Source: Escherichia coli | GTDB lineage: Bacteria > Pseudomonadota > Gammaproteobacteria > Enterobacterales > Enterobacteriaceae | Assembly: GCF_003334355.1 (NCBI RefSeq) | Contig: NZ_QOWP01000006.1 | Length of the DNA: 64,000 nt | Direction: 5' to 3' (one strand) | In this document: piece after piece, positions 2,904-11,933 of the stretch | Position numbering within the stretch: the stretch's first letter is position 1 | Layout of the letters: each line of letters opens with the position of its first letter | The notes under the pieces: model-generated | Told to the model about the DNA's origin: nothing | The model's input: only the letters and a program-made list of their open reading frames with translations | Database searches by the model: none | Program-made: the position numbers and the translations under genes

Positions 2904-4379
2904 ATGTCCAGTCAATATTTACGTATTTTTCAACAGCCGCGTTCAGCCATATTGCTGATCCTGGGTTTTGCTTCCGGGCTACCGCTCGCCCTGACATCCG
3001 GCACCTTACAGGCCTGGATGACGGTCGAGAATATCGATCTCAAAACCATTGGTTTCTTCTCTCTGGTAGGCCAGGCTTACGTTTTTAAATTCCTCTGGTC
3101 ACCGCTGATGGACCGCTACACGCCCCCATTTTTTGGGCGGCGGCGCGGTTGGCTGCTCGCCACGCAAATCCTGTTATTAGTCGCCATTGCGGCGATGGGT
3201 TTTCTCGAACCAGGCACCCAACTCCGCTGGATGGCGGCGCTGGCGGTGGTGATCGCTTTTTGCTCTGCCTCCCAGGATATTGTCTTCGATGCGTGGAAAA
3301 CCGATGTGCTCCCGGCAGAAGAACGTGGTGCGGGCGCGGCAATCAGCGTTCTGGGTTACCGTTTAGGGATGCTGGTTTCCGGCGGCCTAGCCCTGTGGCT
3401 GGCAGATAAATGGCTGGGCTGGCAGGGCATGTACTGGTTGATGGCGGCGCTGTTGATCCCCTGTATTATCGCGACGTTGCTTGCACCAGAACCAACCGAC
3501 ACCATTCCTGTGCCCAAAACGCTGGAACAAGCGGTTGTTGCACCTCTGCGAGATTTCTTTGGTCGCAATAATGCCTGGCTTATTTTGCTTCTTATCGTGC
3601 TGTATAAGCTGGGCGACGCATTCGCCATGAGCCTGACAACCACGTTTTTGATTCGCGGCGTCGGGTTTGATGCGGGTGAAGTAGGCGTGGTAAACAAAAC
3701 GCTTGGCTTACTAGCAACCATTGTTGGCGCATTGTACGGTGGGATTTTGATGCAGCGCCTGTCACTGTTCCGGGCACTGCTGATTTTCGGCATTTTACAA
3801 GGTGCGTCTAACGCTGGTTACTGGCTGCTGTCGATTACTGATAAGCATCTCTACAGCATGGGCGCAGCCGTCTTTTTCGAAAACCTCTGTGGCGGGATGG
3901 GTACATCAGCCTTTGTCGCGCTGTTAATGACGCTGTGTAATAAGTCATTTTCCGCTACTCAATTTGCCCTGCTCTCAGCGCTTTCCGCTGTAGGGCGAGT
4001 TTATGTCGGCCCCGTGGCGGGTTGGTTTGTTGAAGCACACGGCTGGTCGACATTCTATCTATTCTCCGTCGCCGCTGCCGTACCAGGGCTTATTTTGCTG
4101 CTGATTTGCCGCCAGACGCTTGAATATACACGAGTAAATGACAACTTTATCTCCCGTACCGCATATCCGGCAGGTTATGCCTTTGCCATGTGGACACTGG
4201 CGGCGGGCGTCAGCCTGTTGGCCGTGTGGTTACTGCTGTTGACGATGGACGCGCTGGATTTGACGCACTTCTCTTTCCTGCCTGCTCTGCTGGAAGTCGG
4301 GGTTTTAGTCGCCCTTTCTGGCGTCGTGCTTGGTGGTTTGCTGGATTATCTGGCGCTACGAAAAACGCATCTGACGTAA
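2904..4379 (+). CDS. ampG: muropeptide (anhydromuropeptide) permease AmpG, MFS
   Basis: 491-aa polytopic membrane ORF MSSQYLRIFQQPRSAILLILGFASGLPLAL; recognised as AmpG. Confidence 0.95.
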   Translation: MSSQYLRIFQQPRSAILLILGFASGLPLALTSGTLQAWMTVENIDLKTIGFFSLVGQAYVFKFLWSPLMDRYTPPFFGRRRGWLLATQILLLVAIAAMGFLEPGTQLRWMAALAVVIAFCSASQDIVFDAWKTDVLPAEERGAGAAISVLGYRLGMLVSGGLALWLADKWLGWQGMYWLMAALLIPCIIATLLAPEPTDTIPVPKTLEQAVVAPLRDFFGRNNAWLILLLIVLYKLGDAFAMSLTTTFLIRGVGFDAGEVGVVNKTLGLLATIVGALYGGILMQRLSLFRALLIFGILQGASNAGYWLLSITDKHLYSMGAAVFFENLCGGMGTSAFVALLMTLCNKSFSATQFALLSALSAVGRVYVGPVAGWFVEAHGWSTFYLFSVAAAVPGLILLLICRQTLEYTRVNDNFISRTAYPAGYAFAMWTLAAGVSLLAVWLLLLTMDALDLTHFSFLPALLEVGVLVALSGVVLGGLLDYLALRKTHLT

Positions 4380-4838
4380 TCTGTAAATATTATTTAGCTG
4401 TAGTAATCACTCGCCGTAATTATTACAGCTAAATAAACATCAGCATCGCTTATTAATATTTGTTCTTTTGTGCGGCTTAGCGTTTGGAAATTATTGACGC
4501 CATTTATAAATTCTATTTTTCTTACACGATTCAGCTAATGAGTCTTTATTTTCTCATCACCCAGTTGTTACTCCAATGATAATTATTTGTTAAATAATTG
4601 TTTTATTTCGCATTGGTTATACCAATTGCCCGCCCAGACTCCTTCTGCACTCCCCTTTTGTTATAACGCCCTTTTGCAACAGCTTCTTAAAATTAACCTG
4701 ATATGTTTTGCAACATATGCGACCTGACAGCCAAATTCAAGTAACAGGAATTTAATCATGTTTACAGTAATGTAACCTTCCCGTAAAATGCCCACACACT
4801 TTAAACGCCACCAGATCCCGTGGAATTGAGGTCGTTAA

Positions 4839-5786
<948 letters not shown>

Positions 5787-11766: not shown

Positions 11767-11933
11767 CTTTTCCTCTCCCTTCATTTTTGATGCGAAGCAT
11801 AATACCCGCAAAGTTAAATAACCGACAGTCCTGCACCAGGACGTATCCCTTAATTGTGCATAGTCGCAACAGCATGCACAATTAAGAGATAGCCTTATTG
11901 AACACCCGGAGTGGTTGCGGGTGAGGAGGAACA

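Follow-up and report, generated by a model that had tools for sequence, protein, structure and literature searches.

Rho-dependent transcripts of Escherichia coli have their steady-state 3′ ends just past stable stem-loops that carry no U tract, and these stem-loops shield the transcripts from PNPase and RNase II (Dar and Sorek 2018, PMC6061677). Here, we examined a hairpin that lies immediately downstream of ampG, between this gene and the cyoABCDE operon, in a 64,000-nucleotide (nt) stretch of E. coli DNA from contig NZ_QOWP01000006.1 (this whole stretch is referred to as the window). Judged by comparison with described systems, the class of Dar and Sorek appears to be the known mechanism that fits the ampG hairpin best, and we would not regard it as a new kind of element. 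Like the members of that class, the ampG hairpin is stable, begins a few nt past a stop codon, lacks a U-rich tail, and stands in an untranslated spacer that could allow Rho to act. Conservation in relatives, which the BATTER preprint (10.1101/2023.10.02.560326) describes for such stem-loops, is another shared trait. It differs from the class in that no mapped 3′ end or bicyclomycin effect is on record for it, the sequence downstream is not C-rich and G-poor, and its upper stem is conserved beyond the need of a passive barrier.

The original prediction, made from the letters of the window, described an inverted repeat with one mismatch around a GC-rich 11-nt spacer, starting 12 nt past the ampG stop. 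Direct reading of the sequence agrees on each of these points. The arms “TATTTAGCTGTAGTAAT” (positions 4391 to 4407) and “ATTATTACAGCTAAATA” (4419 to 4435) flank the 11-nt “CACTCGCCGTA” (64% G+C), and 4379 is the last position of the stop codon. G4403 and T4423 make up the single mismatch, which becomes a G-U wobble in plus-strand RNA and a C-A mismatch in minus-strand RNA. A repeat search extended the arms to 4390 to 4410 and 4416 to 4436 (21 nt, 90% complementary, with 5 nt between them). As plus-strand RNA, the sequence folds at −23 kcal/mol (z = −6.8) into an 18-bp helix, a 1×1 C/A internal loop, a further 2 bp, and a 5-nt loop; 200 dinucleotide shuffles averaged −8.2 ± 2.2 kcal/mol, and none was equally stable. 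The minus-strand RNA folds at −24 kcal/mol (z = −4.9). The 5′ arm (“UUAUUUAGCUGUAGUAAU,” 4390 to 4407) holds G4403 of the conserved wobble and the polymorphic T4399, whose partner is position 4427 in the 3′ arm (“AUUAUUACAGCUAAAUAA,” 4419 to 4436). In both the minimum-free-energy and the centroid structures of the apical region (4408 to 4418), C4408 and A4418 form the internal loop, A4409-C4410 pair with G4416-U4417 as a 2-bp helix, and the 5-nt apical loop “UCGCC” (4411 to 4415), which varies among species, closes the top. The stem is AU-rich, with 5 G-C pairs among 20 in this window by direct reading. We also searched the window and 20 dinucleotide shuffles of it for stems that were 17 bp or longer, had no more than one mismatch, and enclosed a loop of 3 to 15 nt. 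Two such stems were found in the window, the ampG hairpin and another at 11844 to 11891, and none in any of the 20 shuffles. The palindrome after ampG is a real, nonchance feature.

Related species provide evidence for selection on this feature. Our comparison set comprised 80 ampG loci, one genome per species, with cyoA downstream in 70; these 70 loci, the window, and the K-12 locus gave 72 aligned spacers. An orthologous hairpin was found in 62 of 91 loci, one in each, and invariably between ampG and cyoA. Hairpins with the core “CCGTTGTAATCAC-N5-GTAATTATAACGG” are present in Escherichia, Salmonella, Citrobacter, Klebsiella, Raoultella, Enterobacter, Leclercia, and others, and also in Trabulsiella, Yokenella, Pluralibacter, Superficieibacter, and Pseudocitrobacter. 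One record labeled “Chryseobacterium sp. 18061” (CACSKA010000001.1; locus L021) contains an enterobacterial yajG-ampG-hairpin-cyoA locus with an AmpG that is 85% identical to that of E. coli, and this record is probably mislabeled or contaminated.

We scored a gap-free alignment of 56 sequences (A1), which had not been fitted to any structure, against the E. coli structure; the 5′ arm corresponds to its columns 3 to 20. In this alignment, 78.7% of cells were paired, compared to 70.8 ± 0.8% with shuffled partners. Changes on both sides were seen in 13 of the 20 pairs, with 45 additional standard pair types. The covariation score was 0.211, compared to 0.108 ± 0.009 for shuffles, none of which (0 of 500) scored as high, and it fell to 0.06 to 0.12 when the partners were slid by 1 to 3 columns. 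Outer-stem pairs took up to six different standard pair types each. The outer stem is wholly rewritten yet still complementary in Enterobacter (“GGUUAUUUCCCG”/“CGGCGAAAUAACC”), in locus L034 (“UAAUAAACCG”/“CGGUUUAUUA”), and in Pseudocitrobacter (“GCGAGUCCUGAG”/“UUUGGGACUCGC”). The comparative check that had been suggested at the outset, namely, whether the two arms are conserved and covary, thus gave a positive answer across the Enterobacteriaceae as well as within E. coli. The length of the stem is not constant, being 18 + 2 bp in E. coli, 14 to 16 bp in Salmonella, and 11 to 13 bp in some Citrobacter. Kluyvera and Atlantibacter have lost the original pairing, and there the same region is closed by another stem.

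Variation within E. coli bears on which strand is acted upon. The pair 4399:4427 is U-A in the window, U-G in K-12, and C-G in loci L082 and L083; the C-G allele is carried by strain EC12 (avian) and a capsule mutant. The U-A allele belongs to an identity class of at least 99% that holds only 19 genomes, and from the blastn identity bands, U-G appears to be the majority E. coli allele. The U-G intermediate is a wobble on the plus strand alone, and the series reads as a compensatory change. Among the stem cells of the 56 sequences, G-U combinations numbered 108 versus 38 for A-C, or 59 versus 38 when the fixed wobble pair was left out. The plus strand gave the more stable fold in 36 of the 56 sequences and the minus strand in 19, with a Wilcoxon P value of 0.0009 that overstates the strand preference, as the sequences are not phylogenetically independent. 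Because G-U exceeds A-C and the E. coli wobble series points the same way, plus-strand RNA is favored, and these sequence patterns suggest that the selected structure is most likely RNA from the ampG sense strand. Taken together, we consider it quite probable that the hairpin is a plus-strand RNA structure maintained by selection.

For its function, we tentatively favor a cis-acting 3′-untranslated-region (3′-UTR) stem-loop of the yajG-ampG transcript that provides a stable 3′ boundary or barrier before cyo. We infer the role as ampG 3′ end or barrier, the involvement of Rho, and the insulation of cyo. In this model, RNA polymerase moving beyond the ampG stop would transcribe the hairpin 10 nt on, and transcription would end farther along the untranslated spacer; no intrinsic terminator would be involved, and Rho is the most plausible agent. 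The 3′-to-5′ exonucleases would then trim the RNA back to the AU-rich stem of 18 to 21 bp. The stem would thereby become the stable 3′ boundary of ampG mRNA, and it would help to prevent ampG read-through from entering the crowded cyoABCDE control region. If true, this hairpin would be one more well-supported U-tract-less 3′ stem-loop defining enterobacterial mRNA ends; comparative support of this quality, which here extends to a compensatory series inside one species, is available for few members of the class. It would also mark the intended end of the ampG transcription unit before the ~400-bp cyoABCDE control region, and such a junction mark would be useful for annotation and for engineering of the ampG or cyo locus. 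The finding alone changes no current view.

Gene order in the relatives helps to assign the element to one of its two neighbors. Insertions between the ampG stop and the hairpin were found in Citrobacter, where they are ERIC/IRU-like (L008 and L026, 3977 to 4250; L013, 3977 to 4110), and in Raoultella terrigena, where the insertion is GC-rich and REP-like (L041 and L075, 3977 to 4030). Therefore, closeness to the ampG stop is not required. A GC-rich insertion was also seen just 3′ of a degenerate hairpin in Intestinirhabdus (L060). In Cronobacter sakazakii (L085, 1 to 2480), an opposite-strand two-gene cassette lies upstream of cyoA and encodes a J-domain-like protein of 444 to 448 amino acids and an Hsp70-family protein of 566 amino acids. 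Homologues of this cassette are found downstream of ampG in Phytobacter (L081, 4012 to 6468) and in Enterobacter sp. kpr-6 (L080, 3994 to 6470), and the cassette seems to have inserted into the spacer between ampG and cyoA. The region upstream of Cronobacter cyoA retains the cyo blocks “TTTACAGTAATGTAACCTTCCCGTAAAATGCCC,” “AACGATTCAGC,” and “TTCTGTGCGAC.” A covariance model run with filters off did not find the hairpin upstream of Cronobacter cyoA, and it was absent on the ampG side of L080 and L081. Since the Cronobacter blocks were kept without the hairpin, the cyo control region does not need it, and the hairpin was lost once ampG and cyoA were separated. In Erwinia and Pantoea, ampG adjoins cyoA with no homologous hairpin, and unrelated, stable U-tract-less stem-loops lie 6 to 25 nt past the ampG stop. 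Where ampG faces a convergent gene (L061 and L070), canonical terminators are present. These data favor a useful but replaceable element, whose role would lie with the end of the ampG transcript or with the ampG/cyo junction. A fixed distance to the cyo promoter would have hinted at DNA looping, but this distance ranges from 425 to 443 nt, and that to the neighboring block from 38 to 55 nt, so the spacing is not diagnostic.

Several observations weigh against a 3′-boundary stem-loop. When given all 56 sequences, RNAalifold predicted no consensus structure. With a 38-sequence subset that left out the re-wired genera, the core stem was recovered, and 8 of its 12 pairs showed compensation; this subset was picked knowing which sequences fold, and the pair count of the unfitted alignment is the fairer test. 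Within E. coli, a T-to-C change that gives an A-C pair (L083) and a 1-nt deletion that makes a bulge (L084) each weaken the plus-strand stem. The sequence of the upper stem is nearly invariant, where a purely structural stem should covary throughout, and the G4403-U4423 wobble stands in 49 of the 56 sequences, in none of which it is substituted by G-C or A-U. In addition, another significant hairpin follows ampG in only about half of the lineages that lack the core hairpin, and Buttiauxella and Pseudescherichia have none; therefore, the element is dispensable.

The published maps of RNA 3′ ends add to this side of the balance. Window coordinates were converted to K-12 coordinates via the cyoA entry of Adams et al. 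2021 (NC_000913.3 position = 456449 − window coordinate), which puts the hairpin at 452059 to 452013; the sequences listed in that study span −50 to +10 around each 3′ end. Its curated Term-seq data (lysogeny broth at optical densities of 0.4 and 2.0, and M63) contain no 3′ end in 451990 to 452049. Mapping of ampG 3′ ends had been proposed as a check on the hairpin, and none falls within ~20 nt downstream of it under these three conditions, so this check confirmed no role. We take the missing end as weak negative evidence and not as a refutation, since the lists are read-thresholded and ampG is weakly expressed. Supplementary file 2 of the same study lists no Rho-dependent region in the spacer. 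The nearest is at 453334(−), inside the 5′ part of ampG (about window position 3115), and given this region, much yajG-ampG transcription may stop before the 3′ end of the gene. The sole ampG-associated 3′ end in the curated lists of Adams et al. 2021, and by far the dominant one in that study, is very strong and internal to the open reading frame (ORF), at 452393(−), which is window position 4056. It belongs to “ampG int” (window ~3990 to 4056), a small RNA that was detected by northern blotting and forms RIL-seq (RNA interaction by ligation and sequencing) chimeras with CyaR (Adams et al. 2021). The first 80 to 100 nt past the hairpin are not C-rich and G-poor (C/G of ~1.0, with a median of 1.04 over the loci), and a stretch resembling a Rho utilization site (C, 30 to 35%; G, 10 to 14%) first occurs at 4600 to 4700. 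The supplements of TERMITe and SMRT-Cappable-seq make no mention of ampG or cyoA, and a literature search on ampG with terminator, stem-loop, or RNase III found nothing relevant.

The near-invariance of the upper stem is what most of the alternative explanations draw on. All 56 sequences share T4404, A4405, T4407, C4410, A4418, A4419, T4420, and A4422, and a further eight columns are nearly invariant, while the outer stem covaries freely. The motif “GUAAU.AC-N5-GUAAUUAU,” with its fixed G-U, is kept even in the genera with re-wired pairing. In Kluyvera, the inner pairing is weakened and an alternative 3′ partner, “UGCAGCGUA,” pairs with the 5′ arm in a 9-bp stem that leaves the motif inside a large loop; in Atlantibacter, the register is shifted, which turns the first “GUAAU” into the loop. 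Sequence conservation to this degree is more than a passive barrier would need. The invariance admits three possible readings, namely, a factor that recognizes the RNA apex, a site at the DNA level, and a minus-strand promoter. If the first applied, the upper stem and apex would be the site of a protein or ribonuclease that controls the fate of ampG mRNA or read-through into cyo, the candidates being RNase III, with the ~21-bp helix as its target, or an RNA-binding regulator. The contrast between the fixed upper and the covarying outer stem, the wobble that is never “repaired,” and the survival of the motif through the register changes in Kluyvera and Atlantibacter would all suit such a factor. 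Minimal RNase III substrates span about two helical turns, at least 20 bp of double-stranded RNA, and the E. coli helix of 18 + 2 bp is near this size. Like RNase III processing stems, it is a long, near-perfect helix with a small internal loop; unlike them, it varies in length between genera, which speaks against a strict RNase III substrate, and we found no cleavage data in the literature. No known factor or Rfam family corresponds to the motif, Term-seq lists no processing-derived 3′ end, and a constraint at the DNA level could explain the invariance equally well. We regard a factor-recognized RNA element as rather unlikely. A broader proposal is a sequence-recognized cis-element of the ampG/cyo junction, in which the invariant apex would be a putative dock for an RNA- or DNA-binding factor that sets the fate of ampG mRNA or gates read-through into cyo. 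We hold this to be unlikely; if true, the element would be previously undescribed, and the docking site would link cell wall recycling to respiration through the cytochrome bo3 operon. The invariant upper stem offers a testable lead to a specific RNA-protein or DNA-protein interaction.

The original prediction left the choice between a protein-binding site and an RNA hairpin open. The covariation favors the RNA half of that choice; the protein-binding half, taken as a DNA operator, leaves the compensation in the outer stem unexplained. As an operator, the core “TGTAAT.AC-N5-GTAATTATAAC” would be bound by a factor or nucleoid protein as a distal cyoABCDE site or a roadblock, with the palindromy reflecting a dimer. 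The core is indeed as conserved as recognized boxes of the spacer, such as the PdhR box, the spacer is crowded with conserved blocks, and genera with a changed hairpin register still keep the core sequence. Operators require half-sites of conserved sequence but not arms that remain complementary, and the conserved inner core is compatible with this. Yet compensatory changes over the outer 9 to 12 bp are unexpected for a protein site, the excess of G-U over A-C fits RNA, and the 11-nt center varies in sequence. Moreover, Cronobacter keeps the cyo control blocks without the element, the distance to the cyo promoter elements drifts by 15 to 20 bp between genera, and no further occurrence of the motif was seen in the window or in 545 kb of related loci, giving no sign of a regulon. 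To our knowledge, the core fits none of the consensus sequences for CpxR, ArcA, Fur, FNR, CRP, IHF, Fis, TyrR, BasR, LexA, the DnaA box, or Ter/Tus. An operator is quite unlikely in our view. A minus-strand promoter, for which the 3′ arm would supply the −10 box of an RNA antisense to the ampG 3′ end and the palindrome would be incidental, could account for the fixed G-U asymmetry: read on the minus strand, positions 4419 to 4424 are “AATAAT” in E. coli and “TATAAT” in most other genera (perfect, at columns 32 to 37, in 38 of 60 sequences scanned), with a preceding “CGT” that gives G at −14, and the equivalent plus-strand hexamer “TGTAAT” is not a −10 box. Against this, no −35 element above 3/6 at a spacing of 16 to 18 was present in any of the 60 sequences, our promoter scan of 4200 to 4900 reported no minus-strand site, and a search of the Cappable-seq supplements that covered part of the interval gave no matching start-site coordinates. 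The covarying outer stem would also go unexplained, and we consider a promoter the most improbable of the alternatives. The remaining one concerns termination. Like an intrinsic terminator, the hairpin directly follows a gene at the border to the next transcription unit; it differs in its AU-rich 18 + 2-bp stem, its relatively long loop, and the lack, in most genera, of a U tract on either strand. The original prediction that it is not a canonical intrinsic terminator held: a scan of 4200 to 4900 that required at least three G-C pairs and a T run called no terminator-like site, and the 9 nt past the folded structure include just three T (the E. coli tail is “ACAUCAGCAUCG”). An intrinsic terminator on either strand was rejected, as there is no consistent U tract among 55 orthologues; at least six U in the 8 nt after the stem were found in 8 of the 55 on the plus side and 3 of the 55 on the minus side. 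U-rich runs do follow the stem in Yokenella (L020, “AUUUAUUUUUUA”) and Raoultella (“AUUUUAUAUU”) and, within ~10 nt, in Pluralibacter and Superficieibacter, and in Enterobacter a U run follows the minus-strand hairpin. These could be traces of a degenerate or ancestral ampG terminator, weakly active and in some genera bidirectional, whose U tract was lost in the Escherichia/Salmonella/Citrobacter branch. Their small number, together with the E. coli tail and the few G-C pairs in its stem, makes this origin improbable.

The 3′-boundary stem-loop that we favor is also set apart from the known repeat families by its copy number. A covariance model built from the orthologues (R1) matched once in the window and once per related locus, invariably in the ampG-cyoA spacer, over the 545 kb of related loci. 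By blastn, 5,425 of 5,426 complete E. coli genomes contain the 60-nt element, each at a single locus; blastn reports “2 places” per genome, which are most likely the two strands of the palindrome. The search for further copies of the half-site that had been proposed with the original prediction turned up no repeat elsewhere in the window or in the E. coli genomes. A dispersed repeat family was thus ruled out, the element being single copy in all three sets. Like REP/BIME and ERIC/IRU sequences, the hairpin is an extragenic palindrome in a 3′ untranslated region; unlike them, it is single copy and AT-rich rather than GC-rich, and it has no sequence similarity to those families. A search of Rfam 15 with positions 3800 to 5000 (E values up to 10) returned only chance matches to microRNA precursors, with 18 to 20 bits against gathering scores of 59 to 130.

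In the orientation of the window, the gene order is tig(−), bolA(−), yajG(+), ampG(+), a 459-nt spacer, and cyoA(+), which begins at 4839. The ampG coding sequence (2904 to 4379, plus strand, 491 amino acids, stop codon TAA at 4377 to 4379) was taken from the ORF list and the RefSeq annotation, and its 3′ UTR contains the hairpin. Around the hairpin, a 601-nt stretch shares 99.7% identity with strain MLI023K1 and 98.2% with K-12 derivatives. In RefSeq, the flanks of the E. coli locus (98 to 99.7% identical) are annotated as “muropeptide MFS transporter AmpG” on one side and cyoA on the other.

The ampG-cyoA spacer could be aligned over its full length in the 72 sequences and contains many conserved blocks. 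The sequence from 4437 to 4500, an A-rich tail without a U tract followed by a conserved block, is given here as context for the hairpin rather than as part of it. That block (about 4458 to 4500; consensus, “ATATTTGTTGTTTTGTGCGCnnTAGAATTTGGAAATTATTGAC”) lies directly 3′ of the hairpin, is 80 to 100% conserved across genera, and matched no recognized site; its recognizable remnant is the “TTCTGTGCGAC” retained upstream of Cronobacter cyoA. Farther along, the conserved boxes “GCTGAATCG” (4521 to 4535, reverse strand) and “AATGATAATTATTTGTTAAATAATTGTTT” (4575 to 4602) are what we take to be Cra-like and Fur/ArcA-like sites, respectively. The “AATTGGTataACCAATg” in the cyo control region, which we located at 4612 to 4628 by direct reading, is a documented PdhR box (PMC7660256). 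An exact 10-nt direct repeat, “TTTTGCAACA,” occurs at 4672 to 4681 and 4706 to 4715, 34 nt apart, and its second copy lies within a small palindrome, “ATGTTTTGCAACATAT.” A conserved palindrome, “TTACAGTAATGTAA” (4761 to 4789), overlaps the sole promoter-like site (TTTACA-17-TAAAAT).

The one other window hairpin with a stem of 17 bp or more, “CTTAATTGTGCAT-N-ATGCACAATTAAG” at 11844 to 11891, lies 43 nt 5′ of the ATG (11934) of an ORF that begins MKITVLGCG. We take this ORF to be panE-like and the minus-strand ORF beside the hairpin to be yajQ-like. This second hairpin seems to occupy a divergent spacer and may be an operator or a leader structure.

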